A DNA stretch of 64,000 nucleotides, from positions 5,062 to 69,061 of the IMG/VR virus record IMGVR_UViG_2974663217_000001, one strand, 5' to 3'. This document shows, in pieces, positions 1 to 62,012 of the stretch. The translations under genes and the position numbers were made by a program. Within the stretch, counting starts at the first letter, position 1. Each line of letters starts with the position of its first letter. Below the pieces are notes generated by a model. The model made no database searches, was not told the DNA's origin, and worked only from the letters and a program-made list of their open reading frames with translations. The stretch is from a virus (taxonomy: Duplodnaviria > Caudoviricetes).

Positions 1-1104
1 AACGGGGGCTATGACGGGTGCGAGGGTGGGCTGCGTTGCCGTGGCACGTTGGTGTTCATGTATGACGAACCGGCCATGCCCCGGGACGATCCCAACCCCG
101 AGCCGTTGCCTCCGATTCCCCCGGCCCCGGAACCCAAGACCCCGGCAAAACCGAGGACCAGGAAAGAGGCGTTGGCGAAAGAACGCGCCGATAAGGAAGC
201 TGCGGAACCCTCCACGCCGGGGATGCCCCCGCAGCCCACCGGCACGCCCCCGAAACGGCGCAAGGGGCAGACTCAGCGCTACACCGCCATTGACCAGCTA
301 CCCGTGGACCATGAGCTTGCCCGGGACACGCCCATGCTTGTGGCGGCCAAGACCAACCCCGGCCATGACAAGAGCTATCGCACCAAGGTTTACAACAATA
401 ATTGCACCAGCGTGGCCAACGCCTACGAGTTCCAGCGGCGAGGGTATGACGTGAAAGCCGGCCCCGTCCCGGGCGGCAAGGGCAGGTTTGAACAAGAGTA
501 TGTGGAGCGCTGGTGGCGGGACGCTGACGGCGCCCCCGTCCGCTACACCCGGGTGGTGGACCTCCCGGAACCCAAGGGCAGGTTCACAAGTCACGGGCGG
601 GTTCGTGCGCAGCTTGCCGAGTGGGGCGCGGACTTGCCGGACGGCGCCCGTGGCTTCATTCAGTTGCATTGGACCAGCGGCGGCGGCCACGTCTTCAACT
701 GGGAGAAAGTGGGCGGCTCGATCACCTACCTAGAGGGCCAGAACGGGACGTGGGACGCGTCCGGGCACCTCGCTGACGGGAAGTTCCGCACCTCCACGGT
801 CAAGATTGTGCGCATGGACGATAAGACGCCCTTGGATATCGTCACGCAAGCATTCGAGAACCGCACCCCGGAATATCTGGCCGAGGTCAGCGGCGCCACG
901 GGCGTGGCCGGGGCTGCCCTGACCAGTGCCGAGAAAAAGGCCAAGTCAAAGTTCCGGATACGCAACGGTGTGGAGATTATCGCCCCGGAATTCCGGAAGA
1001 ACGCCAAGGGGCGGTGGGAACCAATCCCCGAGGAAGAACGCAAGGCCATGCTGGAAGAGTTCTATCGGGAGAACCCCCGGTGGAAACCTTTTGGGCGAGG
1101 CTAA
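1..1104 (+). CDS. MuF-like minor head protein (5' partial) with C-terminal papain-fold toxin domain (Tox-PL / glutamine deamidase-like)
   Basis: Frame is open from base 1 (NGGYDGCEGGLRCRGTLVF, a MuF C-terminal CxGGxRCRG motif). A Pro-rich linker follows, then NNNCTSVANAYEFQRRGYDVKA...RGFIQLHWTSGGGHVFNW...YLEGQ (Cys 403-405, His 688-690, Gln 739-741). Confidence 0.8.
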   Translation, partial: NGGYDGCEGGLRCRGTLVFMYDEPAMPRDDPNPEPLPPIPPAPEPKTPAKPRTRKEALAKERADKEAAEPSTPGMPPQPTGTPPKRRKGQTQRYTAIDQLPVDHELARDTPMLVAAKTNPGHDKSYRTKVYNNNCTSVANAYEFQRRGYDVKAGPVPGGKGRFEQEYVERWWRDADGAPVRYTRVVDLPEPKGRFTSHGRVRAQLAEWGADLPDGARGFIQLHWTSGGGHVFNWEKVGGSITYLEGQNGTWDASGHLADGKFRTSTVKIVRMDDKTPLDIVTQAFENRTPEYLAEVSGATGVAGAALTSAEKKAKSKFRIRNGVEIIAPEFRKNAKGRWEPIPEEERKAMLEEFYRENPRWKPFGRG

Positions 1105-1134
1105 AACAGGCACGCAAAGGCGGAAAATCAGGGT
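1103..1134 (+). promoter_or_regulatory. Class I phage promoter (AAAACAGGCAC box), leaderless, for the immunity-like gene
   Basis: AAAACAGGCAC at 1103-1113, 10 nt, AAAAT, 6 nt, ATG at 1135. Same spacing in 10 copies. Confidence 0.75.
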
Positions 1135-1440
1135 ATGACTACAACATTTGAGGAAGCACGCGCCATAGTCCTGGAACAGAACCGTGAGGGCTGGGAGGAA
1201 GACCACGAGGGCACCTTTACGGTGGCCGCCTACGGGTGGGAGGACGACGCCGGGTTCCTTGTGGTTCAGGGCGCCCATGAATGGCTGGTCGACGGTGACG
1301 AAACCTACAGCGTGATGGACGCCCCCGCCGTGTTCGTGTCCAAGGACGACGGAACAATCCTCGAGGCCGATTATCTGGACGTGGCCGACAGGATAGCGGC
1401 CATGACGCCCGTCCCCGGCCACGAGTACACCGAGGACTAA
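1135..1440 (+). CDS. Acidic protein, candidate immunity protein (Imm35/YrhB-like) for the MuF toxin
   Basis: Directly after the toxin ORF and very acidic. N-terminal TFEEARAIV and C-terminal PAVFVSKDDGTI resemble YrhB/Imm35 patterns (by eye, no HMM run). Confidence 0.55.
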   Translation: MTTTFEEARAIVLEQNREGWEEDHEGTFTVAAYGWEDDAGFLVVQGAHEWLVDGDETYSVMDAPAVFVSKDDGTILEADYLDVADRIAAMTPVPGHEYTED

Positions 1441-1451
1441 GCCAGCACCCC

Positions 1452-1490
1452 AAAGCGCCCCGCAGCCAACCCGGCTGTGGGGCGCTTTTC
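1452..1490 (+). terminator. Intrinsic terminator
   Basis: 16-bp stem AAAGCGCCCCGCAGCC / GGCTGTGGGGCGCTTT followed by T. Confidence 0.8.
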
Positions 1491-1505
1491 TGTGACATGG
1501 GCGCC

Positions 1506-1546
1506 CGTCCCACAGTCCCGGCTACACGGTGGGCATTATCGGGGCA
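1506..1546 (+). promoter_or_regulatory. Class II (late-type) promoter
   Basis: CGTCCCACAG at 1506, CATTAT at 1534-1539, predicted start site A1546, exactly 40 nt after the box start. Confidence 0.65.
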
Positions 1547-1577
1547 TCCGAGGTTACTACAAGCAGGAGGTGGGGCA

Positions 1578-1841
1578 ATGCCCATCAAGCGAGGTGCAAA
1601 CGGGCGGTTCGTGGCCAACGGTGGGCGTGTTTCCGCCAAGGGCAAGGGCGCGGCTAAGGCGTCCGGCAAATCCGGCGGTTCCGCTGCTGCGCTGGCCAAG
1701 CGCGGCGTGGACCACATTCTTGCGCGCAAGGCCGCCGACGCCAAAAAGAAAAAGCCAACACGGGCACAGGCCCGGGCTGCCGCGTTGAAGAACGCGCAAG
1801 CCAAGATGCTGGCACAAGCCAACGCCAAGAACAAGCGGTAA
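1578..1841 (+). CDS. Small Lys/Arg/Ala-rich basic protein 1 (87 aa)
   Basis: RBS AGGAGG before ATG 1578. Begins MPIKRGANGRF; about 23 K/R versus 2 acidic residues. Confidence 0.8.
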   Translation: MPIKRGANGRFVANGGRVSAKGKGAAKASGKSGGSAAALAKRGVDHILARKAADAKKKKPTRAQARAAALKNAQAKMLAQANAKNKR

Positions 1842-1853
1842 GGAAGAAAGAGA

Positions 1854-26383: not shown

Positions 26384-26418
26384 TTCTTACCCTTTCGTTG
26401 TGGCGGTTACTGCGTAAA

Positions 26419-30696: not shown

Positions 30697-30726
30697 TTGC
30701 TAAAACGTCAAGCCCCCCTCTATAGT
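30697..30726 (+). promoter_or_regulatory. Sigma-A-like promoter
   Basis: TTGCTA-18-TATAGT. Confidence 0.65.
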
Positions 30727-31370: not shown

Positions 31371-32776
31371 TCCCCCGGGGCGCCGAGGTGGTGCGCAAGA
31401 GCAACCACCAGCTTGGCAAGGTGTTGGGTTACGTCCCGGGCGGCTATGAGGTCATGTGGAACGGAACCAAAGCCATTAGCTATGAAGACGAAACGACCAT
31501 TGAACCCCGATTTGAGGAAGACAGCGAGGAACCCATGAAAGTTATTGCCCTGCAAGCCGAGAACGTTAAGCGTTTGCGTGCCGTGTCCATTGGATTTGAC
31601 GGCACCTTGCAAGTCATTGGCGGGGACAACGGCGAGGGTAAATCGTCCGTGTTGGACGCGATATGGCTGGCCCTTGGTGGCCGCCAAGCGGTCAGCGAGA
31701 CGCAGACCACCCGGCCTATTCACGACGGCGAGGCTGTGGCCACGGCCACGGTGGACCTTGGGGAACTGATTGTGACCCGGACGTGGAAAGAGGGGAAATC
31801 CCCCACGGTCAAGGTGACCACCCCCGAGGGCGCCGAACACAAGTCGCCGCAAGCGATTCTTGACGCCCTCACGGCCAAGGTGGGCATTGACCCGCTCGCG
31901 TTCACTCAGGTGTCCGCAAAGGAACAGATCAAGCAGCTTTTGGCGCTTGTTGACCTCCCCTTTGACCCGGCGGAACTGGACGCCGAATATGCCGAACTCT
32001 TCGCTGCACGCACGACGGCCAACCGTCGCGTGGCCGAGGTAGAGGCCCGGTTGAAAAGCTACCCAGAACCAGCCGAAAACTTGCCCGAACAAGAGGTCGA
32101 CGTGGCCGAACTGGTGGACACGCTGCGGCGCATTGACTCCATCAACGCCGCCGTCACCCGCGCCAACGAACGGCTGACCGAGGCGGCGGCATCGGTCCAG
32201 TATTTCGAGGAAAAGCTGGAAGCCGCCAAAGCCGAACAAAAGGCCGCGCAAGTGGCACAAGCTGACGCCTACAACCTCGCCAAAGCGTCCCCCAACGCTG
32301 AGGAAGTCCGCGCCAAGCTGGACACCGTGAGCGAGACGAACAAGGCCGTGCGAACCGAGCAGGAACGGCAGCGCGGCATTGCTGCCCTCGCTCAAGCGAG
32401 GGCCGCCTCGGATGGGCTGAGCCGCAAGCTAAAGGCGATCCAGGACACCAAAACCAAGGGCTTGGCGGCGGCGGAATGGCCCATTGAGGGGCTGGGGTTC
32501 GACGCTGAGGGGTTGACGTTCAACGGCGTGCCGTTCAGTCAGGCATCAAGCGCTGAACAGATCAGGGTTTCCATGGCCATGGCTATGGCTGCGGCCCCGA
32601 AACTCAAGACCCTGTTCATTCGGGACGGCTCGCTACTGGACCGCAAGAACATGGCTTTGGTGGCTGAACTGGCCGCCGCGCGAGGGTATCAGGTGATCAT
32701 GGAGCGCGTGGGCGACCATGACCCGGGCGCCGTAATCATCGAAGACGGAACTGTGAAAGTAGACACAAAGAAATGA
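31367..32776 (+). CDS. SMC/RecN/Rad50-like ATPase with coiled coil (ATPase domain starts at ATG 31535)
   Basis: Walker A GGDNGEGKSS, long coiled coil, signature SSAEQ, Walker B-like LFIRDGSLLD. Confidence 0.88.
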   Translation: MIPRGAEVVRKSNHQLGKVLGYVPGGYEVMWNGTKAISYEDETTIEPRFEEDSEEPMKVIALQAENVKRLRAVSIGFDGTLQVIGGDNGEGKSSVLDAIWLALGGRQAVSETQTTRPIHDGEAVATATVDLGELIVTRTWKEGKSPTVKVTTPEGAEHKSPQAILDALTAKVGIDPLAFTQVSAKEQIKQLLALVDLPFDPAELDAEYAELFAARTTANRRVAEVEARLKSYPEPAENLPEQEVDVAELVDTLRRIDSINAAVTRANERLTEAAASVQYFEEKLEAAKAEQKAAQVAQADAYNLAKASPNAEEVRAKLDTVSETNKAVRTEQERQRGIAALAQARAASDGLSRKLKAIQDTKTKGLAAAEWPIEGLGFDAEGLTFNGVPFSQASSAEQIRVSMAMAMAAAPKLKTLFIRDGSLLDRKNMALVAELAAARGYQVIMERVGDHDPGAVIIEDGTVKVDTKK

Positions 32777-33027
32777 CCACCAAAGTTGACCCGGGCGAGG
32801 CCAAAAAGCTGCTATCCGCTGTGACCCGTGGAACAGCACGCAGCGAGCGACTGAGGGCGATAGCTGAACGCCGTTACAAGCGCGACCTCGCCCGGGCCAA
32901 CGAACCGCGCCGTTTAGCGGTTCTTGCCGCCAAGAATGCTGGCATCAAACGCGAGGAAATCGCGGACGCTGCCGGGGTTTCCGTGGCCCGTCTTTACCAG
33001 ATAATTGAGGGCACCCAAGACGCCTGA
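32773..33027 (+). CDS. HTH DNA-binding protein
   Basis: IKREEIADAAGVSVARLYQII. Confidence 0.78.
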   Translation: MTTKVDPGEAKKLLSAVTRGTARSERLRAIAERRYKRDLARANEPRRLAVLAAKNAGIKREEIADAAGVSVARLYQIIEGTQDA

Positions 33028-38002: not shown

Positions 38003-38067
38003 GCATTCGGGAAGCGCGCGACGTTGCCGGGGTGATCCACAAGTAACCAATTTTGGGGGTGTGTGCG

Positions 38068-38100
38068 AAAACAGGCACGCGCCCCCATATGTTGGGACTA
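38068..38100 (+). promoter_or_regulatory. Class I promoter
   Basis: AAAACAGGCAC 38068-38078, TATGTT, predicted start site A38100. Confidence 0.7.
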
Positions 38101-38132
38101 CCAGCACTTGCCACAACGAAAGCAGCAACCCC

Positions 38133-41121: not shown

Positions 41122-41315
41122 CCTGGGACATTGCGCGCGCGCTGCTGTTTGCGTCCGTTCTCGCGTTGACTGTGGCCGGTTGGCTGACGTTCTTTGAACT
41201 GGTGACCTCCAAAGCGGTGCCACTCGCTAACTGGAAGTCCCGGGGCGCTGCTATTGCGTTCACGGCTGGGGTGCTGCTGGGCATTGTGTCATTCCTCGTG
41301 GGGCTTGCCCGGTGA
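41118..41315 (+). CDS. Small 2-TM membrane protein
   Basis: GTG 41118 overlaps the upstream stop; two hydrophobic helices. Confidence 0.65.
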   Translation: MTWDIARALLFASVLALTVAGWLTFFELVTSKAVPLANWKSRGAAIAFTAGVLLGIVSFLVGLAR

Positions 41316-41671
41316 CCGATGAACTGCCGGGGCTGTGGGGCGATCCCGAACCGCCCCCAGCCCCGCGAGCTCTGCCGGTGTCGTGGGACGGTATCCCCAT
41401 GGAATGGCGGGAATGGCACGCTGAGAACCAAATCACGATATGCCCGCCCATCCCCCGCGAGCCGTGCCCCCACTGCGGCTTTGACGACGCGCCCCGGTCC
41501 ATGTGCCGGGGCGTCCGGGTGGGTTCCAGGCTGCTGGGGCCACTCTTTGCGTTCCGCTGCCAAGCCTGTGGCGGCGACACCGTGCACGACCTCCAAGCCG
41601 GCGATACATGGATCCTTGAGCTAGACGACTACGGGCCGGAAGGGTCCAACAACGTCAGGATCATTGACTAA
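41312..41671 (+). CDS. Zinc-ribbon hypothetical protein
   Basis: CPHC...RCQAC. Confidence 0.7.
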   Translation: MTDELPGLWGDPEPPPAPRALPVSWDGIPMEWREWHAENQITICPPIPREPCPHCGFDDAPRSMCRGVRVGSRLLGPLFAFRCQACGGDTVHDLQAGDTWILELDDYGPEGSNNVRIID

Positions 41672-41701
41672 AACAGGCACGCCCCGGGAGACACTGAGAA
41701 T
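41670..41701 (+). promoter_or_regulatory. Class I promoter, leaderless
   Basis: AAAACAGGCAC 41670-41680, GACACT, ATG 41702. Confidence 0.75.
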
Positions 41702-41920
41702 ATGACCACTCCGATAAGCCCCAAGGCTGCCAGGGCGCTTCACGATGCTGGCGTTCCGGGCGTTCCGCCGTTCGTGGCCCTCGCCGGTAGGCCGGTGCTG
41801 TCCAAGCAACTGTTCCCGCCGCCGCTGACCACCGACTGGCGCCGCATCCCCCTGACCAAGTGCCCCGAATGCCCCAAGCTCATGCCAGCCCATCAAGAAA
41901 GGTGCAACGCCCATGTTTGA
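41702..41920 (+). CDS. Hypothetical protein
   Basis: Leaderless start fits the promoter; CPEC motif. Confidence 0.65.
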   Translation: MTTPISPKAARALHDAGVPGVPPFVALAGRPVLSKQLFPPPLTTDWRRIPLTKCPECPKLMPAHQERCNAHV

Positions 41921-44166: not shown

Positions 44167-44388
44167 ATGGCAAAGACGCCCCACCGAGTAGTCCACCTAA
44201 CCAAGTGCTATGACTGCGCCACCCTCGTGGAAGAACCAGTCCGGGGCGCATTCGAGATAGCCCTATGCGCCAAACACCGGGACTGTGTTGGCTGCCCAAT
44301 TCGGGCACTCCCGAAAAAACAGGCACAAGTGCTGACACTGTTGGACTATGACAACCGAACAGACCCCGAACAACCCCAAGCCGCGTAA
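44167..44388 (+). CDS. Small Cys-rich protein
   Basis: RBS AAGAGG; CYDC, C--H-DC motifs. Confidence 0.55.
   Translation: MAKTPHRVVHLTKCYDCATLVEEPVRGAFEIALCAKHRDCVGCPIRALPKKQAQVLTLLDYDNRTDPEQPQAA
44316..44347 (+). promoter_or_regulatory. Class I promoter, leaderless
   Basis: AAAACAGGCAC 44316-44326, CACTGT, ATG 44348. Confidence 0.7.
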
Positions 44389-45219: not shown

Positions 45220-45453
45220 ATGAAAGACCAAGAACAAGAGGAAAGAATGGGAATGGATCGACTACTAACCCTCGTGGCCATGCTGCTGGCCCTCGCCGGA
45301 ATGCTCGCCCTGTTCGTGGCCGCCATATGGGTGGGGGACTGGCGATATGCCCAACTCGGTGGCCTCGCCGCCCTCGTGGCGTTCGGCTTCATGGTCCTAA
45401 TGGGCCACCTCACCGTGAAAGCCGAAAAACAAGCACGCAAAGCGGGACAGTAG
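45220..45453 (+). CDS. Small 2-TM membrane protein
   Basis: Two hydrophobic helices; start 45220 or slightly downstream. Confidence 0.65.
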   Translation: MKDQEQEERMGMDRLLTLVAMLLALAGMLALFVAAIWVGDWRYAQLGGLAALVAFGFMVLMGHLTVKAEKQARKAGQ

Positions 45454-45457
45454 AACC

Positions 45458-45646
45458 ATGGACAAACAACACCCCGACATTCCCACCACCTCACCCCTGC
45501 AAGCCGACGCCATAGGCATGTTTGAGGTGGTAAAGGCCATGACCGCCGCCGGTTTCACCGAGGACCAAGCCTTCCGCTATATCGCCATACGCGGCGCCAC
45601 CCTTGACAAGGCACCCAAGTGCCCCCACTGCGGCGGTGACGTGTGA
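45458..45646 (+). CDS. Small hypothetical protein
   Basis: F--AGFTEDQAF motif and CPHC end. Confidence 0.7.
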   Translation: MDKQHPDIPTTSPLQADAIGMFEVVKAMTAAGFTEDQAFRYIAIRGATLDKAPKCPHCGGDV

Positions 45647-46242
45647 ACGTCCGCGACTTCGACCCTCGCCCCGCCGGCGACGTTGTGCCCGATCCGTTCG
45701 TGGAGGGCACCACGAACAGGTGGATGCCCTTTGACCCCATCCAAGCCGCCACAGCCTACCACGCGGCCCGGGCGTGGGCTTACTACCAGCAAGTAGACGC
45801 AGAGCCAGGAAACGTGAACGCCGCCGCGCTGCTGGTGACTGAGTACCACGTCGCAAGCCTCTACTATGCGTTGTGCACTTCCAGCGCATCCCCCAAAGCC
45901 CTAACTGGCTTCAATAAGGGCATGCGGGAACGCCCCGAAACGCTACGCCACAACATCCGGCACATACTGGGCTACGTGGGCGTGGACCCCCGCGACATTG
46001 CCCCGTTCAAATCCCGGGAACGCATCCAACGCGAGACGCTGGAAAAGCTGCATCAAGACCTGATTTACCACGCAGCCCATGAGGGTGAGGCCGTGGAAGT
46101 GCGCGGCCCACATGGCTGGTACGACGTAGCCCCCGTGATCATGGGCGCCCTTTACCCCGACGCCCGAAAAGGCGACCCCGCCCACTTGCCCGAAATCCGG
46201 GCCAAGCTCACCAAAACCACAGAACAGGAACCCACCGAATGA
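45643..46242 (+). CDS. Hypothetical protein
   Basis: GTGA-coupled. Confidence 0.7.
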   Translation: MNVRDFDPRPAGDVVPDPFVEGTTNRWMPFDPIQAATAYHAARAWAYYQQVDAEPGNVNAAALLVTEYHVASLYYALCTSSASPKALTGFNKGMRERPETLRHNIRHILGYVGVDPRDIAPFKSRERIQRETLEKLHQDLIYHAAHEGEAVEVRGPHGWYDVAPVIMGALYPDARKGDPAHLPEIRAKLTKTTEQEPTE

Positions 46243-47063
46243 CCAACTGCATTGACCTGATCAAGGAAGCACGCCCGGAAGCCCCCAAGGGTTCGTTCTA
46301 CTCGTGCCCCCATGGCCGCGTGTACCGGCTCAAGGCCAAGGGCTGGAAGCCTGTTAGGAACCCGTGGCTTATCCGCCGTGTGGAACGTGAATGCCGGGAA
46401 GCCATGCTGGAACGCGCCTTTGACGAGCTCGCCCGTGTTTGCGAGGCCGCCGCCGCCCGGGCCGACGCGGAAGCCGACCGCGAAGCACGCGAGGACGCCA
46501 ACAGGCTGCACAACGCCAACGAACGCGCCAAAGCCAGGGCTGTCGTGGACGCCCCGGACCCCAGCATGCCCCGTGAGGAACACAAACGCCGGGTTCTGCG
46601 GGTCTTCCACGCAGCACGCCGGGGCGGCAAGACCTACAACGAGGCCGTGGACTACAGCGTGGAGCGCTACGCCGAGAACAACCACCTGAACAAGCACACG
46701 GTCCACAACATGCTGTTGGAAGCGTACAACGACACCCAAGAGGGCACCCCGCGCGTGTCCTTGGTCAAAGACGACGGCACAGACAAAACCCCAGACGAAA
46801 TCCGGGCCGAGGCCGGGGCGATCAACGCAGCCGCGGCCAACAGGCGCGCCGAGACAGCCCAAGCATTCGAGGGCGGCAAGCTCACGGACGAAACACCCGT
46901 GAACGCAATCAAGGTGGAGCTATCCCCCGCCGTGGCCGTGGCCGCTGACGGAACCCGCCGCCCCGCTCCAGTAATCACCGTGGACGGCAGCCCGGACCTT
47001 GCCGCCGTCCGCAAGGCAGCCGCCAACGTCGTGGCCCGAGAACAAGGCCAGTGGTTGCGGTGA
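46239..47063 (+). CDS. Hypothetical protein
   Basis: ATGA-coupled; helical. Confidence 0.7.
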   Translation: MTNCIDLIKEARPEAPKGSFYSCPHGRVYRLKAKGWKPVRNPWLIRRVERECREAMLERAFDELARVCEAAAARADAEADREAREDANRLHNANERAKARAVVDAPDPSMPREEHKRRVLRVFHAARRGGKTYNEAVDYSVERYAENNHLNKHTVHNMLLEAYNDTQEGTPRVSLVKDDGTDKTPDEIRAEAGAINAAAANRRAETAQAFEGGKLTDETPVNAIKVELSPAVAVAADGTRRPAPVITVDGSPDLAAVRKAAANVVAREQGQWLR

Positions 47064-47181: not shown

Positions 47182-47213
47182 AAAACAGGCACGCACCCGC
47201 GGACAATGGAAAC
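47182..47213 (+). promoter_or_regulatory. Class I promoter, leaderless
   Basis: AAAACAGGCAC 47182-47192, GACAAT, ATG 47214. Confidence 0.75.
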
Positions 47214-48020
47214 ATGACCCACACACCCATGATTGAGGAAGTCTGCGCGCTCATAGCAGCGAACGGGCACACCCTCCCGGCGGAACTCACCAGCGCCGAA
47301 CTGTTCGCCGGTTACGGCGGCCTCGCCCAAGCAATCGAACGCGGATTCGGTGCGCACACCATCTGGCTTAGCGAGTTCGACGCTGCCCCCGCTAAAATCC
47401 TCGCCCACCACTGGCCCGGGATCCCCAATCACGGCGACGTGACCAAGATTGATTGGGCCACCATGGAACGCCCCAACATCATGGGCGGCGGGTTCCCCTG
47501 TCAGGACGTAAGCCTTGCCGGACGCCGCGCCGGCCTCACCAACGAAACCCGGTCAGGGCTATGGTTCCACTTCCTCAAAGGAATCGTGGCCCTACAGCCC
47601 GAATTCGTCCTATTCGAGAACGTCCGGGGCATCCTTTCCGCCAAGTCCGTCAGGGACATGGAAAGCACCCCAGAAACCCTTGAGATAGACAGCGAGCTTT
47701 TGGAACTCACGACCCGCCGCGAAACCCTCCACGCAGAATTGGACGCGATCTATGACGAACTTGACCATGCAGAACTCAACGCCGTTGAAAGCCGAATTTC
47801 TGGCCTCCTGGAACAACGAGACAGGGCTATGGGAGGGGAACCAGATGGACCTATTCAGCGGGCACTCGGAACCGTTCTCGGAGACTTGGCCAACGCAGGG
47901 TATGACGCGCAATGGTGTGGCCTACGCGCTGCCGACGTGGGCGCCCCCCATGGGCGCTTCCGCGTTTTCGGACTCGGAATCCGACGCGACCTCCTCAACC
48001 CTGCTAAAGACACCAACTAG
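47214..48020 (+). CDS. C5 cytosine DNA methyltransferase, catalytic (N-terminal) subunit
   Basis: Motif I ELFAGYGG, IV GGFPCQDVSLAG, VI ENVRG, VIII GAPHGRFRVF; motifs IX/X absent; start reassigned to 47214. Confidence 0.9.
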   Translation: MTHTPMIEEVCALIAANGHTLPAELTSAELFAGYGGLAQAIERGFGAHTIWLSEFDAAPAKILAHHWPGIPNHGDVTKIDWATMERPNIMGGGFPCQDVSLAGRRAGLTNETRSGLWFHFLKGIVALQPEFVLFENVRGILSAKSVRDMESTPETLEIDSELLELTTRRETLHAELDAIYDELDHAELNAVESRISGLLEQRDRAMGGEPDGPIQRALGTVLGDLANAGYDAQWCGLRAADVGAPHGRFRVFGLGIRRDLLNPAKDTN

Positions 48021-49155
48021 CCAGCTAGCCGTAAACGGTGGCAGCCAGCACCCGGACAAGCGCAAAGCCGGGGGCCACGGCCCAACACTGGCCGATGAAA
48101 TCGAACACGCCCTGCCAGCCGTGGAGGAAGTGCCCGAATCGTCCCTACTGCTCACCCCCGTTGCTGCTGAGGGCGTGAAGCCGTCCAACACCATGGGAGT
48201 GAACCGGCGGCTGTCCACCGGGCAACTGTTCCTCACCAACCAAGTGGTCACCATCATGGGGTTGGACCCGTCCGAACAAGACAAGATTCTTCCCACGCCT
48301 CGCGCGTCCGATGGGCTGGCAGGACCGGACCCCTTGGAACGCCCCGAGCGCATGGACGATATCGCCACCCGGGTGAAGCGCATTACCTTGTTCCCGACGC
48401 CCACGACTCAGGAAACCAAGTCGGGGCCGTCGCAAGCGAACCGGAACACGCCCCCGCTCAATCATGTGGTCACGGACCTGCTGCCCACCCCCATTGCCTC
48501 TGACGGCAAGGGAACAGGCCCTGCAGACGCCAAACGCGAGACGGTCCAACTGCGTGCGATCACCGAGCTTTTGCCGACGCCCAAGGGCAGCGACGGGGAA
48601 AAGGGCGGCCCGAACCAGCGCGGGTCCAAGGGTGACTATGCCCTTCCCGCCGTGGGGCACCTCTTGCCGACCCCGGCAGCCAACGACAGTGGCAACACCC
48701 CGGAAGAACACCTGCGGAAGAAACCCGGGCGCACCCAAGTAACCAGCTTGCAAGTCATAGCCGACCACGGCCTCATTGAAACCGGGGGTAAGGTTCTGCC
48801 CACTCCTGTTGGTTCGGAAATCTCCGCTGGCGGGGAACGCGAGGGGCAGCTGTCCGGTGAAGCCAACACCGTGAACTGGGGCGCCTACGCCCCGGCCATT
48901 GCCCGGTGGGAACGGGTCTGCGGCATCCTGGCCCCTACCCCCACAATCCCGACCGGGCGGGACGGCGCGCAACGCCTCAACCCCGCCTTTGTGGAATGGA
49001 TGATGGGCTTGGAACCCGGCCACGTCACCGGGGTGGATATCCCCCGCTCTGCCATGCTCAAAGCCCTTGGTAACGGGGTTTGCCCACAGCAAGCCACCGT
49101 GGCTATCAACCACCTGTTGGGCATGTTCGTGCGAGCCTACGGACTGACGGCATGA
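47752..49155 (+). CDS. C5 methyltransferase C-terminal subunit with 8 LxTP repeats
   Basis: Ends LNPAFVEWMMG...KALGNGVCPQQA (motifs IX/X); overlaps the previous ORF by 269 nt in another frame. Confidence 0.85.
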   Translation: MTNLTMQNSTPLKAEFLASWNNETGLWEGNQMDLFSGHSEPFSETWPTQGMTRNGVAYALPTWAPPMGASAFSDSESDATSSTLLKTPTSQLAVNGGSQHPDKRKAGGHGPTLADEIEHALPAVEEVPESSLLLTPVAAEGVKPSNTMGVNRRLSTGQLFLTNQVVTIMGLDPSEQDKILPTPRASDGLAGPDPLERPERMDDIATRVKRITLFPTPTTQETKSGPSQANRNTPPLNHVVTDLLPTPIASDGKGTGPADAKRETVQLRAITELLPTPKGSDGEKGGPNQRGSKGDYALPAVGHLLPTPAANDSGNTPEEHLRKKPGRTQVTSLQVIADHGLIETGGKVLPTPVGSEISAGGEREGQLSGEANTVNWGAYAPAIARWERVCGILAPTPTIPTGRDGAQRLNPAFVEWMMGLEPGHVTGVDIPRSAMLKALGNGVCPQQATVAINHLLGMFVRAYGLTA

Positions 49156-49238: not shown

Positions 49239-49270
49239 AAAACAGGCACAACCCGGGACAGAATGGACTC
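49239..49270 (+). promoter_or_regulatory. Class I promoter, leaderless
   Basis: AAAACAGGCAC 49239-49249, CAGAAT, ATG 49271. Confidence 0.75.
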
Positions 49271-51187
49271 ATGCCACTTTGCCCCCCATGCCAGGAACTC
49301 TATGACGGCTGGCTTGAGTACAAACAGCCGGCCACCAAATGGGTGCACCTCAACAACGAGGCACGCAGCATTGAAGCCCGGAAAGCCCGAATCCAAGAAA
49401 CCCGCGACCTGCAACGCCAACAGCTAGACATGATCCGTGACACCTGCAATCGCAAACACCAAGAAAGTGAAGCCGTGACCCTAACCCCCGAGGAAACCCA
49501 AACCGTAGTAGACGCCCTAAACGCTGACAACGAAATCCCGATGCCAGCCCCGGAAATCCACTACACAGACAGCAACGTGACCCTGTGGCATGGCGATTGC
49601 GTGGACGTGCTGCGTGGCCTCCCCGATAACAGCGTCGACTCAGTGGTCACAGACCCGCCCTATGGAATCCGGTTCATGGGCAAATCGTGGGACGGCGAGG
49701 ACATTGAGGAAATGACCGCCAAGCGCCGCGCCGCCGCCCCCATGCCGGACGGTGTAGGCGGCCCGAACGGCGGTTACCAGTCAGCCAGCACCGAGGCCGG
49801 ACGCTACCGGCAGAACCTCACCGCTAACCAAGCCTTTGGCGAATGGTGCCTCGAGTGGACCCGCGAGTGCTTCCGAGTCCTGAAACCCGGCGGCCATATC
49901 CTCGCGTTCGGCGGTTCCCGCACATGGCACCGCCTCGCGTCCGCCGTGGAAGACGCCGGGTTTGAAATCCGCGACTCAATCGCATGGCTCTACGGATCCG
50001 GGTTCCCCAAGTCCATGGACATTTCCAAAGCAATCGACCGCATGCGCCACGAGGGACCGGAAAAGCTCAAAGTCACCTCCTGGCTTGCTGATCAGGCAGA
50101 CAAGAACGGCGTCACCCGGGCCATGCTCGACGCGGCCATGGGAACCAGCGACATGGGCGGCTGGTGGCTGTCCCGACTGGAACACCGCTGCCAAGTGCCA
50201 ACCATGGAGCAAATCCCCCGGGTACTGGAAACCCTTGGCGTGGCATCCGAGGACGTGCCCGAGGATATCCAAACCCTGATATTCGAGCTCAACGGCGCCA
50301 AGGGCACCCCCGGCAAGGCATGGCTGGAACGCGAGGTAATCGGGCAACGCGAAACAGGGGACGCGCTGGGCTGGCTGCAACAGACCGGCAGCACCGCCAA
50401 GACCGTGGACGTGACCGCAGCGCACACCGAGGCCGCGAAAAAGTGGGAGGGCTGGGGCACCACCTTGAAGCCGTCCTTTGAACCCGTGGTGGTGGGCCGC
50501 AAGCCCATGCGGCTGACGACGGCGGCCAACGTCATGAAGCACGGCACCGGGGGCATGAACATTGCCGCAACCCGGGTGGGCGGCGAGGAACGCACCAACA
50601 AAGCCGGCGGGGCTTCCAGCCTGTCAGCGGTCACCCGCGTGGAACAGGGCTACCGGGACACTGTGAGCGAGTGCGAGGGCACCGAGTCCACCGTTTCCGG
50701 GCGCTGGCCAACGAACGTGATCCTGGACCCGTTCACCGCGGAACTGCTCAACGAACAAGAGGCCAACGCCGACCAGTTCTTCCCCGTGTTCCGCTACAAC
50801 CCCAAAGCCCCGGCCAGTGAGCGCCCCAGCTATGACAAGGCCGGCGGCAGCGGCGGCACCATTGCGGCCATGCGCTGCACCGGCTGCGGCAAGCAAGACC
50901 TGTCCGGCACGCCCTGCACTTGCGAGAACCCCACATGGGTGCGCGACCTTGGCAATAAGGTGTCCCACCCCACCGTGAAGCCCTTGGACCTCATGCGCTG
51001 GCTTATCCGCCTCGTGACACCCCCGGGCGGCACCGTGCTGGAACCGTTCGCCGGGTCCGGCACCACAGCCGAGGCCGCCGTCATGGAGGGCATGCAGTGC
51101 ATAGCCATTGAACGCGAGGCCGATTATCTGCCCCTGATCCGGCAACGCCTCGAAAAGCCCATTGAAGTGGCGCTGTTCCAGGTATGA
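49271..51187 (+). CDS. N6-adenine / N4-cytosine DNA methyltransferase (beta class) with insertions
   Basis: GDCVDVL...VTDPPY...SHPTVKPLDLMRWL...VLEPFAGSGTT. Confidence 0.9.
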   Translation: MPLCPPCQELYDGWLEYKQPATKWVHLNNEARSIEARKARIQETRDLQRQQLDMIRDTCNRKHQESEAVTLTPEETQTVVDALNADNEIPMPAPEIHYTDSNVTLWHGDCVDVLRGLPDNSVDSVVTDPPYGIRFMGKSWDGEDIEEMTAKRRAAAPMPDGVGGPNGGYQSASTEAGRYRQNLTANQAFGEWCLEWTRECFRVLKPGGHILAFGGSRTWHRLASAVEDAGFEIRDSIAWLYGSGFPKSMDISKAIDRMRHEGPEKLKVTSWLADQADKNGVTRAMLDAAMGTSDMGGWWLSRLEHRCQVPTMEQIPRVLETLGVASEDVPEDIQTLIFELNGAKGTPGKAWLEREVIGQRETGDALGWLQQTGSTAKTVDVTAAHTEAAKKWEGWGTTLKPSFEPVVVGRKPMRLTTAANVMKHGTGGMNIAATRVGGEERTNKAGGASSLSAVTRVEQGYRDTVSECEGTESTVSGRWPTNVILDPFTAELLNEQEANADQFFPVFRYNPKAPASERPSYDKAGGSGGTIAAMRCTGCGKQDLSGTPCTCENPTWVRDLGNKVSHPTVKPLDLMRWLIRLVTPPGGTVLEPFAGSGTTAEAAVMEGMQCIAIEREADYLPLIRQRLEKPIEVALFQV

Positions 51188-51336
51188 GTAAGTGCGAGAA
51201 CTGCGGCGTGGAACTGAACGCGGACGGCACCCGCCACCACAACGACATTCTGTTCTGCGCTTTCGCGTCAACGCCGTTTGACTGGTACGACTGGCGGACG
51301 GCAAAACAGGCACCAACGCCCATAAGCTCGGAATAA
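51184..51336 (+). CDS. 50-aa Cys/His-rich protein
   Basis: ATGA overlap; MSKCENCGVELNADGTRHHNDILFC... Confidence 0.5.
   Translation: MSKCENCGVELNADGTRHHNDILFCAFASTPFDWYDWRTAKQAPTPISSE
51303..51335 (+). promoter_or_regulatory. Class I promoter
   Basis: AAAACAGGCAC 51303-51313, TAAGCT, predicted start site A51335, leader with RBS GAAAGGA. Confidence 0.75.
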
Positions 51337-51357
51337 GCCACAACGAAAGGAACCACC

Positions 51358-52812: not shown

Positions 52813-53103
52813 ATGACCGAGAATCTGGACCCGGCGAACGCACCCCTGAACCCGGCCCCGGTGACACTGCCGGAAAACGGCGACGTGGTGCTGTACCTCA
52901 CCAAGACTGACGGGGCAGAGGTTCCCGCCATGGTCAATGCCGTGTTCCCCGAGCACGGGCGTGTCAGTCTGCGCATCTTCAACCCGCAACACGTCGCGGA
53001 AGACCCCATCGACGCCGAACAGCTGGTTATCCCGGATGCTGTCACCTACCTGCCAAGTGGTTCGGGGTTGCCCGAACCGGGCCGTTGGCGCCACCGCGAC
53101 TAA
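52813..53103 (+). CDS. Hypothetical protein
   Basis: ATG 52813 after a purine-rich RBS; GDVVLY...VPAMV--V...PGRWRH motif. Confidence 0.7.
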   Translation: MTENLDPANAPLNPAPVTLPENGDVVLYLTKTDGAEVPAMVNAVFPEHGRVSLRIFNPQHVAEDPIDAEQLVIPDAVTYLPSGSGLPEPGRWRHRD

Positions 53104-53133
53104 AACAGGCACGCGGCTGCTTACGGTGGGAAT
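53102..53133 (+). promoter_or_regulatory. Class I promoter, leaderless
   Basis: AAAACAGGCAC 53102-53112, TACGGT, ATG 53134. Confidence 0.75.
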
Positions 53134-53505
53134 ATGACCACTTACCCGCAGCCCTTGCGTGAACTCGCCGCCCTCGTGAGCTCCACGCAGCACACATGGA
53201 CCACCGAGGACGAACTACAACACTCCATAGCCGAAACCCTCAAGGCCGCCGGCCTAGACGTTACCCGCGAGGTGACCCTAGACGGCGGCCTTGGGCGCGT
53301 CGACCTCATGGTCGGCAAGGTAGGCGTTGAGGTGAAAATCAAGGGTTCGTGGCAGCAACTCACCCGGCAAGTCATGCGCTACGCCCGGGCCGAGGAAATC
53401 AAAGCCCTATTGGTGATCACCACCAAAGCAGCGCACGCCAAGCACGTCCCCGTGCAAGCGTTCGGGGTGCCCATCCTGACCGTGTTCCTGGACGGTGCAT
53501 TTTGA
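53134..53505 (+). CDS. PD-(D/E)xK nuclease-like protein
   Basis: EDELQ...REV...GRVDLMV...GVEVKIKG...QVMRY. Confidence 0.75.
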   Translation: MTTYPQPLRELAALVSSTQHTWTTEDELQHSIAETLKAAGLDVTREVTLDGGLGRVDLMVGKVGVEVKIKGSWQQLTRQVMRYARAEEIKALLVITTKAAHAKHVPVQAFGVPILTVFLDGAF

Positions 53506-55247
53506 GCCTCGCGCAACTCGAATTGCCGCTAACCCCCGCCCGGACCTACGGCACCTATAGCTACCAGCAAACCAACAAACGCGGCTTGTGGACCCTCAAA
53601 ATGGAACCCGCCGTCGCCATGCGCGCCAAACGCATCTTTGGCCGGGTCCGATGGGTGAACCCCGGCACCGTGGAAATGTGGGACACCTTGGACGTGGCCC
53701 GTGACCTCGAATGGCTGCTTGAGCGCTGGCCCATGACCCCGGACAGCCCCGAAGCCGCGCAACGGCTCTACAAATCCGCGAGGGCACACCGCCGCCGCGA
53801 GGAAACCATCCAACAGGTAGTGACCGGCCAACGCCGCCTAGAGCTACCCCGCGACCCCGCGAAAGCGCCCCGCGATTACCAGCTAGTTGCCGTGGACCTC
53901 TTGCGCCAAACAGGCCGGTTGCTGCTGACCGACTCCCGAGGGCTGGGCAAAACCTACACGGGGTTGCTCAACGCCACCCACGAGGACGCCCTGCCCATGC
54001 TGGTGGTGCCCCCGGCGCACCTCCCGGGCCGGTGGGCGCTTGAGGCCGCCGAATCGTTCCCGTTCCTGCGCGTGGAGATAGCCAAGCGAGGCACCCCACC
54101 AGAGAACTGGACCGCCAAGGACATGCCCGACGTCATGATCGTGCCGTATTCCAAGCTGGCCAGGTGGACTGACTACCTCGCCGGGAATATCCGCGCAATC
54201 GTGTTTGACGAAGTGCAAGAACTCCGCACGGGCAAATACACGCAGAAAGGCACGGCCGCCGCGTTCCTCTGCCAAGACACCCCTTACCGGCTGGGGCTGA
54301 CGGCCACCCCCATTTACAACTACGGCGGCGAAATCTGGAACATTCTGGACATACTGGCCCCCGGGGAACTTGGCACCTCCGATGAATTCACCCGCGAGTG
54401 GGGTTCATCGTCCTACAACGGCAAGACGCTGATCAAGGATCCCGCAGCGCTTGGCGGGTACTTGCGCGAGCAAGGGCTAATGCTGGGCCGGAACCGCAAG
54501 GACGTTGGCCGCGAGCTACCCCCGCACGTCACCGTGCCCGTGACCGTGGAAAGCAACCCGGAAGCCCTCGAAAAGGTCAAGGGCGACGCCCAAGCCATGG
54601 CCAAGCTGATCCTGGCCGCCGACACCACCAGCTTTGACCGCATGAAAGCCGCCGGCGAACTGGACTGGAAGCTCCGCGAGGCAACAGGCATTGCCAAAGC
54701 GCCCTACGTGGCCGAGTTCGTGCGCCTATTGCTGGAATCGGAGAACAAGGTGCTGCTGTTCGGCTGGCACCGGGCCGTGTATGACATTTGGCTTGACCTC
54801 TTGGCCGAGTTCAACCCCGTGCTATACACCGGCAGCGAGTCCGCCACGCAAAAGGACGCCGCAGCCAAAGCGTTCATTGAGGGAGACGCCCGGGTGCTGC
54901 TCATGTCCTTGCGCAGCGGGTCCGGCGTGGACGGGCTGCAGGAAGCCTCCAAAGTGTGCGTGTTCGGGGAACTCGACTGGTCCCCCCAAGTGCACTTGCA
55001 AGGCATCGGGCGGCTAGACCGCGACCCCGCAGACCCCAACGTCGACCTGGAAGCCGTGGAGCCCACCGTGGCCTACTACCTGACCACCGAGGACGGCAGC
55101 GACCCCGTTCTCATGGAAACGCTAGGCATCAAACGGAACCAATCCGAACCCATGCTGAACCCTGACGGTAAGCTCACCAGCAACGCCGCACCTGACACCG
55201 GGCGAGCTCGCGCGCTGGCCCTCCAAATACTGGGAGACACCAAATGA
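53502..55247 (+). CDS. SNF2-family helicase
   Basis: PRDYQ, LLTDSRGLGKT, VFDEVQELR, LTATPIYN, GSGVDGLQ, QGIGRLDR; start TTG 53502. Confidence 0.92.
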   Translation: MSLAQLELPLTPARTYGTYSYQQTNKRGLWTLKMEPAVAMRAKRIFGRVRWVNPGTVEMWDTLDVARDLEWLLERWPMTPDSPEAAQRLYKSARAHRRREETIQQVVTGQRRLELPRDPAKAPRDYQLVAVDLLRQTGRLLLTDSRGLGKTYTGLLNATHEDALPMLVVPPAHLPGRWALEAAESFPFLRVEIAKRGTPPENWTAKDMPDVMIVPYSKLARWTDYLAGNIRAIVFDEVQELRTGKYTQKGTAAAFLCQDTPYRLGLTATPIYNYGGEIWNILDILAPGELGTSDEFTREWGSSSYNGKTLIKDPAALGGYLREQGLMLGRNRKDVGRELPPHVTVPVTVESNPEALEKVKGDAQAMAKLILAADTTSFDRMKAAGELDWKLREATGIAKAPYVAEFVRLLLESENKVLLFGWHRAVYDIWLDLLAEFNPVLYTGSESATQKDAAAKAFIEGDARVLLMSLRSGSGVDGLQEASKVCVFGELDWSPQVHLQGIGRLDRDPADPNVDLEAVEPTVAYYLTTEDGSDPVLMETLGIKRNQSEPMLNPDGKLTSNAAPDTGRARALALQILGDTK

Positions 55248-55456: not shown

Positions 55457-55805
55457 CACATGGCCCCGGGACGCCGCCGGCAACATACGCATGGTGCTGT
55501 ATGTTGCCGGTCCCATGACCGGGCTTCCCGACTACAACCGCCCCCAATTCAACGCCGTAACCGAGGAACTTAGACGCCGCGGCTACTACGTGTTAAATCC
55601 GGCACGGCAGCCATTAGGTTTGGAATATAACGACTACATGAGGCGCGGACTGTACGACGTGCACCGATCTGACGGGCTGGCATTGCTGCCCGGATGGGAG
55701 GACTCAAACGGCGCCCGTATCGAACACCGACTAGCCCTGAAAATGGGGCTGGAATGCAAACCCCATGACGAATGGGAAAACCTCTATGAAAGGCCACAAC
55801 TATGA
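55446..55805 (+). CDS. DUF4406 / nucleoside 2-deoxyribosyltransferase-like protein
   Basis: YVAGPMTGLPDYNRPQF...VLNPA...LLPGWEDSNGARIEH. Confidence 0.85.
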   Translation: MHADTWPRDAAGNIRMVLYVAGPMTGLPDYNRPQFNAVTEELRRRGYYVLNPARQPLGLEYNDYMRRGLYDVHRSDGLALLPGWEDSNGARIEHRLALKMGLECKPHDEWENLYERPQL

Positions 55806-59273: not shown

Positions 59274-59319
59274 CTTCCTAACGCAGTAACCGCCACAACG
59301 AACGAACAGGACCAGGAAA

Positions 59320-60448: not shown

Positions 60449-60476
60449 GAAAGCCACCCTACGGGGTGGCTTTTTT
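60449..60476 (+). terminator. Intrinsic terminator
   Basis: AAAGCCACCC tacg GGGTGGCTTTTTT. Confidence 0.9.
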
Positions 60477-60488
60477 CGTGCCCGAACA

Positions 60489-60520
60489 AAAACAAGCACG
60501 CCCCGCCACAGAATGGGGAT
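60489..60520 (+). promoter_or_regulatory. Class I promoter (variant AAAACAAGCAC), leaderless
   Basis: Box 60489-60499, CAGAAT, ATG 60521. Confidence 0.7.
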
Positions 60521-60760
60521 ATGACCACTTACGAGTATCAGACGGTGAAAGTGAACCGAGGCCGCAAGTCCTATGACGCGACCATGAACGCCTACGCTGC
60601 GGACGGCTGGGAAATGGTGAACGTTCGGGACGCGTGGCAAAAGCACGTCACCGTGACCCTACGGCGCGACACCAGCCACCCCGCAGCCTTGCGCCCCAAG
60701 GCCCCCACACTGCTGGGGCTGATATTCGGGGCATTGACCCGCAACCGCACCGCCAAGTAA
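60521..60760 (+). CDS. DUF4177-like small protein
   Basis: YEYQTV...MNAYAADGWEMV...LRR. Confidence 0.75.
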   Translation: MTTYEYQTVKVNRGRKSYDATMNAYAADGWEMVNVRDAWQKHVTVTLRRDTSHPAALRPKAPTLLGLIFGALTRNRTAK

Positions 60761-60771
60761 AGGAAACCCTC

Positions 60772-61890
60772 TTGAAACTCTCTATTGATTCCAGCGCGCT
60801 GAATGAGGCCGTGAGCTTCGCTTACCGGGCCGTGAACCCGCGCCACGCTAGCCCCGTTCTCACCGGGCTGGTCCTGGAAGCTGACGGCGCCGGGTTGCTG
60901 TCCATTCGAGGCTTTGACCAGACCATGGCCAACACGGTGGAAATCGCCGCTGAGGTGGAAACCCCCGGCAAAGTCCTGTTGCCCGGGGCGGTGCTGGTTA
61001 GCATGCTCAAGACGCTGCCGAATAACAAGCCGCTGACGTTGGACGTGGCCGACAGGGCGGAACTCAAGGTCGGGCGCGCCAAGTTCTCCACCCCGGTTAT
61101 GCCCATGTCTGACTACCCGCAGTTGCCCGGGCTGCCGCAGCGCCTTGGGTACGTGGACAGTGACGTGTTCGCCAAGGCTGTGGGGCAGATTCAGCACGCC
61201 GCCGGCAAGAACTCTGACGTGCCGGTTCTGAACGGCATCAACGTGGAGCTCCGAGGGGGAAACCTCGCGTTTCTGGCCACTGACCGTTACCGCATGGCGT
61301 TGGCTGAAATCCCGGTGAACCGTTACCCGGACACCCCGGAAGATGGGGATTTCTTGGTGCTCGCTGACGTGCTGGTGGGCGCGGCCCGGGCGAACAGCGG
61401 CAACCTGGACTTGCTGGGGTCAAGCCAGCGCATTGGGTTCTTGTCAGCGTCCCGGTCCACCACGTCCAACGTGATCGACGGCCAGTTCCCGCCCGTGCGC
61501 CGGTTGTTCCCCGAGGAACACATGATTGCCAACAGGGTGACCGTGGACGTGGACGCGCTGCTTGGTGCTGTCACCCGCGCCGCCGTCGTGGTGGACGGCA
61601 AGAACCCTGTCCGGCTGACGTTCAAGCCGGGTGAGGTGATCGTGGACGCTGGCCGCGCCGATTCCAACGCTGGCGAGGAAGCCGTGGAGTGCTGGCACGA
61701 CTTCGAGGAACCCACCGGGGTGGGATTCAACCCCACGTTTCTGGCTGACGGTTTGCGCGCCCTGACCGCCCCGCAAGCGCTGTTTGGGTTCGCCGCGGAC
61801 ACCAGCATGAAGCCCGTTGCCCTGCAAGACGCTTCCGACCACACCAACAGCCGCCAGTTGCTCATGCCCATGCGGACGGAATCCATATAA
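60772..61890 (+). CDS. dnaN: DNA polymerase III beta sliding clamp
   Basis: TTG 60772 after RBS AAGGA; PVLTGL, DYPQLP, VLNGI, ATDRYRMA, IDGQFP, GFNPTFL--GL, LLMPMR. Confidence 0.92.
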   Translation: MKLSIDSSALNEAVSFAYRAVNPRHASPVLTGLVLEADGAGLLSIRGFDQTMANTVEIAAEVETPGKVLLPGAVLVSMLKTLPNNKPLTLDVADRAELKVGRAKFSTPVMPMSDYPQLPGLPQRLGYVDSDVFAKAVGQIQHAAGKNSDVPVLNGINVELRGGNLAFLATDRYRMALAEIPVNRYPDTPEDGDFLVLADVLVGAARANSGNLDLLGSSQRIGFLSASRSTTSNVIDGQFPPVRRLFPEEHMIANRVTVDVDALLGAVTRAAVVVDGKNPVRLTFKPGEVIVDAGRADSNAGEEAVECWHDFEEPTGVGFNPTFLADGLRALTAPQALFGFAADTSMKPVALQDASDHTNSRQLLMPMRTESI

Positions 61891-61937
61891 CACGGCTGTG
61901 TTAATCTGAAAGTCCTTCCTGTCGGGGGTCATAGAGG

Positions 61938-61972
61938 GAAAAGCCCGGGTCTGAGTCGCCCGGGCTTTTTTC
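61938..61972 (+). terminator. Intrinsic terminator
   Basis: AAAAGCCCGGG ... CCCGGGCTTTTTT. Confidence 0.85.
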
Positions 61973-61979
61973 TTACCCA

Positions 61980-62012
61980 AAAACAGGCACGGCCCATGTC
62001 ACGCTTGAGCTA
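61980..62012 (+). promoter_or_regulatory. Class I promoter
   Basis: AAAACAGGCAC 61980-61990, CACGCT, predicted start site A62012. Confidence 0.7.

Follow-up and report, generated by a model that had tools for sequence, protein, structure and literature searches.

How can an Arthrobacter phage direct an RNA polymerase to its non-structural genes from sites that have no -35 hexamer? The question is raised by a stretch of 64,000 nucleotides (the window), which covers bases 5062-69061 of the 69,061-bp virus record IMGVR_UViG_2974663217_000001. In the window an 11-bp box, AAAACARGCAC, recurs at a fixed distance before genes. The source is a myophage of the genus Klausavirus (Cluster AR), with about 80% DNA identity to PrincessTrina, vB_ArtM-ArV1 (ArV1), KBurrousTX, Colucci, and Lymara. 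Our preferred reading, to which we assign a probability of about 0.6, is that the boxes mark a promoter class (class I) private to Klausavirus. The host holoenzyme would melt the -10 element, a dedicated protein would read the box, and transcription would start mostly at the ATG itself.

Four Cluster AR relatives were used for genome and annotation comparison, which gives five genomes with the window phage. A divergent metagenomic relative, whose helicase is 68% identical, was also compared; the counts based on 70 sites cover six genomes. In the numbering used here, box+32 is +1 and the box spans -32 to -22.

A discrete and strand-specific class of boxes

The box was searched by its own letters, and the downstream bases at -11 and -7 were not part of the query. 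Eleven exact matches were found in the window, all on the plus strand, versus 0.12 expected from window shuffles (maximum 2). No further exact box was found in the whole 69,061-bp genome. The initial annotation had reported ten boxes; all ten coordinates were right, but the copy at 45426 had been missed. The geometry that it described, box-N10-A-N3-T-N6-A, is seen in 11/11 copies. Its placement of the box was also confirmed: -32 to -22 does not correspond to a -35. The last A of the pattern is the A of an ATG in 8/11 copies, so that the pattern first described stands with its count corrected from 7/10. In seven of these eight cases, this ATG is the earliest possible start codon of its open reading frame (ORF). 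The boxes at 38068, 51303, and 61980 agree with the short purine-bearing leaders described for them: each has a predicted start A and a leader (33, 23, and 35 nt, respectively) with a GAAAG-type purine stretch before a GTG or ATG.

A weight matrix was trained on the sites of the relatives only, and then run on both strands of the window. The 11 window sites scored 26-49 bits, one degenerate extra site at 55595 scored 21 bits, and the next best score was -9 bits; the minus strand gave nothing. The class I boxes are one discrete, strand-specific class, since a 30-bit gap separates them from the noise. Three of the boxes overlap the TAA stop codon of the preceding gene. Strong hairpins with T-runs end 7-20 nt upstream of four boxes (47182, 49239, 60489, and 61980), which is the classic terminator-promoter arrangement.

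Conservation of the box and its core

A motif scan of this and related genomes, proposed as a check in the initial annotation, recovered the same discrete class. The five genomes contain 48 exact boxes, every one on the plus strand. Counting one- and two-base variants gives 12-13 sites per genome, and 12 of the positions, all before orthologous genes, are common to the five genomes. The variants show that box positions 1, 2, 6, and 7 tolerate change, and that GCAC is invariant. Among the 48 exact boxes, A at -11 and T at -7 are present in 48/48, as are purines at -5 and -4; A at +1 is present in 41. The 10-nt spacer is nearly random and carries almost no information. Positions -35 to -30 read gCAAAA, unlike TTGACA, and T-12 is found at 17/48 class I sites. 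Across six genomes, 40/70 sites have an ATG exactly at +1; the background frequency of ATG is 1.2%. In the relatives, box+32 was picked as the start codon in most cases, independently by the SEA-PHAGES and ArV1 annotators.

The metagenomic relative has the box unchanged, with two sites at 11-nt spacing instead of 10. This one-base flexibility fits two promoter elements that are read separately. Every relative reached keeps the box unchanged, and no box was found in helicase relatives at ≤59% identity. Within IMG/VR the box is multi-copy only in the Klausavirus lineage; the ~50-kb phages with the same host lack it.

Proposed promoter anatomy

The proposed promoter would consist of the 11-bp box, with the core AACAGGCAC usually followed by G, and a minimal -10 element in which only A-11 and T-7 are fixed. 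The discriminator at -6 to -3 would be purine-rich and G-rich. The start A would mostly be the A of the ATG, giving an mRNA without a leader. Sigma-70-family factors flip out and capture two bases of the -10, A-11 and T-7, so the host RNA polymerase holoenzyme most likely melts this core. A G-rich stretch directly 3' of the -10 contacts sigma region 1.2. Because the core has neither a -35 nor T-12, it is probably too weak alone and would need a protein on the box. The box would most likely supply the missing upstream contact through a dedicated protein, which might sit between the DNA and sigma region 4 or replace region 4.

It could be asked whether the box is a promoter element at all. It might be an RNA-level signal near start codons, for translation or processing, like the Cluster K mycobacteriophage start-associated sequences, or a recombination boundary between gene modules. 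The fixed distance from the box to many start codons would suit such a signal, and two loci deserve attention here. At 61980-61994, the window genome lacks two genes that lie between two class I boxes in KBurrousTX (68200 and 69013) and PrincessTrina (67425 and 68285). The deletion junction falls exactly at the promoter 11 box, and by sequence it looks like box-to-box recombination; but such recombination is to be expected, as a side effect, wherever a sequence of 11-35 bp is repeated. At 38068, the box is enclosed by a GC-rich hairpin with a 12-bp stem (38054-38087), with the 5' part of the box in the loop and GCAC in the 3' arm of the stem. This hairpin is present in five of the five genomes with compensatory changes (z = -4 to -7), has no T-run, and is located where the 30.9-38 kb operon ends. 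Its role may be to stabilise the 3' end of the operon RNA or to gate promoter 2. A non-promoter signal is nevertheless very improbable. The four boxes just 3' of terminators would rarely be transcribed, and 4/12 window sites lie 23-35 nt or more from a start codon yet keep A-N3-T-N6-A. Moreover, an invariant A at -11 and T at -7 is the signature of sigma-dependent melting.

A second box on the same core

A different box, CGTCCC[AC]CA (CGTCCCACA class; class II), is located before virion genes, at -40 to -32 of a class I-type core. A-11 and T-7 are present in 37/42 class II matches from the five genomes; -1 is C and +1 is A, often of an ATG. T-12 is found in 0/37 sites. Thus class II resembles class I in its core (A-11, T-7, A at +1, often ATG), its strand specificity, and its conserved position. 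The two classes differ in box sequence and box position, and class II serves virion genes only and is common to phages without class I. The class II box was also found, in the same register, in five complete ~50-kb Arthrobacter myophages. The three of these that were compared share only the virion module with the window phage. No class I box and no homologue of an 84-aa helix-turn-helix (HTH) protein of the window phage were found in the five ~50-kb phages. Class II goes along with the virion module, whereas class I accompanies the non-structural module of Klausavirus. A k-mer search of the ~50-kb phages for an equivalent private box revealed coding bias only.

The occurrence of one core under two different boxes indicates that the boxes are interchangeable upstream modules. 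This is the strongest argument that they are positive specificity elements and not operators. In the operator explanation, the promoters would be self-sufficient and a phage protein would shut the units off through the box. Cluster A mycobacteriophage stoperators, which are asymmetric repressor sites in one orientation, show no fixed register to the -10. The class I site is likewise asymmetric and in one orientation, and its 12-13 copies per genome overlap stop codons or fall in short gaps between genes. RNA polymerase would be blocked by a protein at -32 to -22. The register of class I to A-11/T-7 is fixed in all copies (48/48), which is not a stoperator property, and a core without a -35 and T-12 is unlikely to be strong on its own. 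That virion genes use the same core, with another box at another position, is easier to reconcile with positive addressing than with two repressors. The annotation of these phages lists no lysogeny functions. On this balance, an operator seems improbable.

The small 52-aa ORF at 62562 was also considered as a reader of the class II box. It was rejected, since the ~50-kb class II phages show no homologue, though so small a protein could be missed.

Comparison with known promoter systems

The initial annotation called the class MotA-like. Since the box does not resemble the MotA box and searches revealed no homologue of MotA (MotCF) or AsiA, the term describes an analogy only. The MotA box has the consensus (a/t)(a/t)(a/t)TGCTT(t/c)A and is centred near -30, whereas the class I box is centred at about -27 and has another sequence. 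In T4 middle promoters, as proposed for class I, a phage-specific box replaces the -35 before a host-type -10, the genes served belong to DNA metabolism, and the host polymerase is re-addressed rather than replaced (PMC7403470). Class I differs in its -10 without T-12, and in that most of its transcripts are predicted to be leaderless, which the T4 middle transcripts are not.

The closest geometry is that of the "-26 element" of actinobacterial PafBC promoters. Their sequence is tGTCgg-N10-tA-N3-T; the element occupies -28 to -23, and a -35 is missing (PMC8635444). In PafBC, one HTH reads the DNA and another holds SigA region 4, so that the activator is inserted between the DNA and region 4 (PMC8635444). 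Muller et al. (2021, PMC8635444) propose that such "sigma adaptation" is common among Actinobacteria. Class I shares with PafBC promoters a hybrid structure, the phylum, the missing -35, and an element near -26/-27 at a fixed distance to A-N3-T, which in class I gives AACAGGCAC-N10-A-N3-T. In class I, the box core occupies -30 to -22 and 10 nt separate the box from A-11; the register is 1 nt off that of PafBC. However, the class I box is unrelated in sequence and has 11 bp versus 6, and T-12 is not kept. The GTC triplet of PafB is absent from that place on both strands of the class I box. The phage has no detected WYL or PafBC-like gene, and class I sites precede phage genes rather than a DNA-damage regulon. 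The action of a box reader would resemble either PafBC sigma adaptation or the "sigma appropriation" of T4 MotA/AsiA.

A further comparison is provided by the leaderless SigA promoters of Actinobacteria. In these, a TAnnnT element lies 6-7 nt before a start site that is the A or G of the start codon; in C. glutamicum, 97% of the SigA start sites have this element (PMC3890552). Class I agrees with them in how far the -10 is from the ATG, in the weak or missing -35, and, by prediction, in an AUG at the 5' end. The leaderless SigA promoters differ in that about 97% have T-12, and in having no counterpart of the conserved 11-bp box. In class I, the host-type -10 is kept and the -35 is absent, but T-12 is not kept.

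In the literature searched, which did not take in the ArV1 paper (J Virol 2017), no published description of the motif was found. A full-text search with the box sequence returned unrelated papers only, and Klyczek 2017 does not mention promoters or motifs. We rate the class as one of a kind already known, that is, a phage-specific box that replaces the -35 on a host-type -10. As unusual within this kind we rate the single crippled core common to two classes, and the starts fused to the ATG.

Search for a box reader

The box reader is probably phage-encoded, and the 84-aa protein (32773-33027) is the sole visible candidate. The initial annotation had named this gene and the ORF at 62562 as HTH candidates. 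For the former, a small HTH protein is supported by sub-threshold Pfam matches (HTH_3, HTH_23, and HTH_7) and by a match to phrog_686, "HTH DNA binding protein". Its AlphaFold model (pLDDT 86) consists of a 49-residue helix followed by a two-helix HTH. The best fold matches, all insignificant, are the E-helix and DNA-binding domain of resolvase, and HTHs of the LuxR/sigma-4 type. No direct link to the box was found. The gene occurs only where the box occurs, is conserved in every genome with the box, including the divergent relative, and is absent from the ~50-kb phages. A 69.5-kb JGI contig encodes a 64%-identical homologue. The 84-aa protein is also the only recognisable DNA-binding protein encoded in the 30.9-38 kb operon upstream of the box at 38068. 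The ORF at 62562 did not hold up as a candidate. Its HTH was seen by eye only, with no hit in Pfam or in PDB sequence searches. As it is located 3' of a class I promoter, it would be a product of the class rather than a likely trigger. PDB sequence searches with the 84-aa protein likewise gave nothing significant.

Known types of transcription factor were searched for in the phage. No match to MotA (PF09158) or AsiA (PF09010) was found at E ≤ 10 in six frames of the whole 69-kb genome, where very divergent analogues are possible. The sigma-70 families PF04542 and PF04545 had no match, and PF08281 gave only HTH matches of 11-13 bits; PHROGs and Pfam scans of about 60 phage proteins found no sigma. 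Neither a WhiB domain nor a WYL domain (PF13280) was detected. The single-subunit RNA polymerase family PF00940 had no match in the phage, although a control search also found nothing anywhere. The largest ORF of the non-structural arm encodes 638 aa, and its large ORFs are methylases and a helicase. The ESM Atlas returned nothing for the 276-aa protein at 37172-38002. A MerR-like HTH protein at 26444-26662 (minus strand) is flanked by palindromic operators, which are its more plausible targets.

Several points weigh against the preferred reading. The fold of the 84-aa protein matches nothing significantly (best Foldseek E-value 0.5). The distribution of its gene is shared by about 60 other genes specific to the lineage, including nearly all of the non-structural arm; its tie to the box is therefore weak, being one of shared distribution. 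The operon that contains the gene lies behind a consensus-like promoter with a terminator ~85 nt later, so its "early" expression is uncertain. A protein at -32 to -22 could repress instead of activate. The start sites, the leaderless status, the dependence on a factor, the origin of that factor, and the "middle" timing are all inferred from the DNA. The predicted ribosome pairing before class I ATGs, described below, is a further point of this kind.

The host alone might also read the class, and in that case the genes would be early rather than middle. The reader would be an alternative sigma factor, for example of the extracytoplasmic function (ECF) type with AAC at -30 to -28, 16 nt before the -10, or a sigma-adaptation activator. 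The range of ECF spacing covers AAC-N16. No sigma, WYL, WhiB, MotA, or AsiA gene is detectable in the phage, which speaks for a host reader. The class II box occurs in two phage groups whose common ground is limited to virion genes and the host, which indicates that boxes can travel without an obvious regulator. The proposal that sigma adaptation is common in Actinobacteria also favours it (PMC8635444). Against this, the invariant 11-bp box is longer than an ECF -35 element, and a fixed A-11/T-7 is typical of group 1-3 sigmas and not of the ECF -10 (CGT type). The ~50-kb phages of the same host have no class I box. In a scan of 185,579 species genomes with the ATG required, among the matches listed (at least 120), all were single and outside Actinobacteria. 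A host reader is therefore judged unlikely, though it deserves consideration.

A wider proposal starts again from the phage-encoded reader. One crippled core (A-11/T-7, start at ATG) with two private boxes might run the whole post-early programme. A small phage protein, possibly the 84-aa helix-plus-HTH protein, would read the class I box and adapt the host SigA in a PafBC-like manner. This would be sigma adaptation in a minimal form carried by a phage, and leaderless mRNAs would result. We regard this proposal as tentative and open to doubt.

Start codons and translation signals

The initial annotation stated that class I genes with ATG at +1 have no Shine-Dalgarno (SD) sequence. This was not borne out by the predicted pairing energy with the anti-SD in the 20 nt before the ATG. 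The mean was -5.5 kcal/mol for class I ATGs versus -6.3 kcal/mol for other genes, which is not significantly weaker (p = 0.18). The purine run before class I ATGs is at -6 to -1, which is too close to the ATG for a normal SD.

The bases at +4 to +8 (ACCAC) are partly conserved, also where the ATG is replaced by AAG or ATA with a leader following. Met-Thr-(Thr/Pro) opens the unrelated class I proteins at 1135, 41702, 44348, 47214, 53134, and 60521, where +4 to +8 is ACNAC. The leadered sites keep the same bases (AAGACCAC), which indicates a constraint at the DNA or RNA level and not at the protein level. A leader element, CCACAACGAA(A/C)G, was observed ~10-20 nt before start codons at 38112-38123, 51340-51352, 26395-26410 (minus strand), and 59293-59306. 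It occurs both in leadered class I units and in operator-bearing consensus-type promoters, and may be a shared translation signal. In addition, the annotated starts of PrincessTrina genes 56 and 81 and of ArV1 ORF054 and ORF091 lie upstream of or across a class I box. The box positions suggest shorter proteins, which would start at box+32 or after a leader.

Units behind the proposed class I promoters

As one part of the preferred reading, and with the same likelihood, class I would drive about 12 non-structural units. They include methylases, a Cas4-like nuclease with an SNF2 helicase, the sliding clamp, and many unknowns (Table 1). The immunity-like gene embedded in the virion operon would be one further unit. 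The initial description of the regulon as methylases, helicase, clamp, and immunity was correct, as judged from Pfam matches and the annotation of the relatives.

Table 1. Proposed class I promoters, class II sites, and the candidate box reader (window coordinates)
Feature	Position	Strand	Sequence elements and predicted start	Genes or remarks
Promoter 1	1103..1137	+	box 1103-1113; A-N3-T 1124-1128; ATG 1135	101-aa gene 1135-1440
Promoter 2	38068..38102	+	start A 38100; 33-nt leader with CCACAACGAAAG; GTG 38133	146 aa, phrog_8744
Promoter 3	41670..41704	+	ATG 41702; highest matrix score, 49 bits	72-aa gene, then genes to about 44080
Promoter 4	44316..44350	+	ATG 44348	167 aa, phrog_8605, annotated "endolysin", CHAP-like
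Promoter 5	45426..45460	+	box AAAACAAGCAC; ATG 45458	62 aa, then 45643-47063
Promoter 6	47182..47216	+	ATG 47214	C5 DNA methylase 47214-48020 (PF00145, 2.8e-31), then 47752-49155
Promoter 7	49239..49273	+	ATG 49271	638-aa N6/N4 DNA methylase (PF01555, 4.9e-29)
Promoter 8	51303..51337	+	start A 51335; 23-nt leader with CCACAACGAAAGG; ATG 51358	146 aa, phrog_8619
Promoter 9	53102..53136	+	ATG 53134	123 aa, "Cas4 family exonuclease" in relatives, then SNF2-type helicase 53502-55247
Possible 12th site, degenerate	55595..55629	+	AAATCCGGCAC-N10-AGGTT-TGGAAT-A; 21 bits	inside coding region
Promoter 10	60489..60523	+	box AAAACAAGCAC; ATG 60521	79 aa, DUF4177, then beta sliding clamp 60772-61890
Promoter 11	61980..62014	+	start A 62012; 35-nt leader; ATG 62047	130 aa, then 52-aa ORF 62562-62720 and further genes
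Class II sites	1506, 3503, 7470, 9784, 19321, 26732	+	usually GACAC ~10 nt upstream of the box	
Candidate box reader (weak)	32773..33027	+	helix residues 7-55; C-terminal helix-turn-helix 60-79	84-aa protein

The first promoter is found inside the virion operon. Its box overlaps the TAA stop of a MuF-like gene, and the orthologous site is present in 4/4 relatives. The gene that follows has no Pfam match; its KBurrousTX orthologue is annotated "Antitoxin, imm35 domain". A separate, earlier-acting promoter for an immunity gene within a late operon would be biologically sensible. The promoter 3 box overlaps the stop codon of the gene at 41312-41671, and has orthologous sites in the relatives. The upstream flank of promoter 4 is the same at KBurrousTX 49612. 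The orthologous sites of promoter 5 have the box variants AGAACAGGCAC and GAAACAGGCAC, and the latter is also the variant in the orthologues of promoter 8. Promoter 6 is directly 3' of a terminator hairpin (-37 kcal/mol, T5), promoter 7 comes after a terminator-like hairpin, and promoters 10 and 11 are each directly 3' of a terminator. All five genomes have the degenerate site at 55595 in identical form, with a perfect core 3' of it. It lies within a nucleoside deoxyribosyltransferase gene, which makes its conservation uninformative; going by its core, it may be an internal promoter.

Other promoters and repeats

Consensus-like promoters with T-12 are also present in the phage: TTGCTA-18-TATAGT at 30697, and an operator-bearing TTGCAA-18-TACATT at about 59240. 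The region 50-64 kb revealed no promoter of the consensus type. The promoter at 30697 is the best of the consensus type, is conserved in the relatives, and lies ahead of the 30.9-38 kb operon. It is followed within ~85 nt by a 5' hairpin and an intrinsic terminator, and the segment 30697-30815 could be a small RNA or an attenuator.

Two observations were made in other phages. In the unrelated high-GC phage IMGVR_UViG_3300031178_000002, a TATCAT-like -10, a hairpin GCGGGTGAGCGACCCGC, an SD, and a start codon occur together 13 times. These elements appear to form a private 5'-leader system of another kind. In a relative with a helicase of 59% identity, CACGACACC is repeated eight times within 450 bp (17160-17600). 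The array is iteron-like and is possibly an origin.

Biological significance

If the preferred reading is true, the window would contain a compact and fully mapped transcription programme of a lytic actinobacteriophage, with two private promoter classes, a common leaderless core, and a regulon of ~12 units. Class I would be a simple test case for the re-addressing of an actinobacterial RNA polymerase without a -35. It would also test how far sigma adaptation reaches beyond PafBC, and how leaderless translation is built into a promoter. In practical terms, gene starts could be corrected in the published relatives (PrincessTrina 56 and 81; ArV1 054 and 091), and the sites might be used as short orthogonal promoter parts for Arthrobacter genetics.

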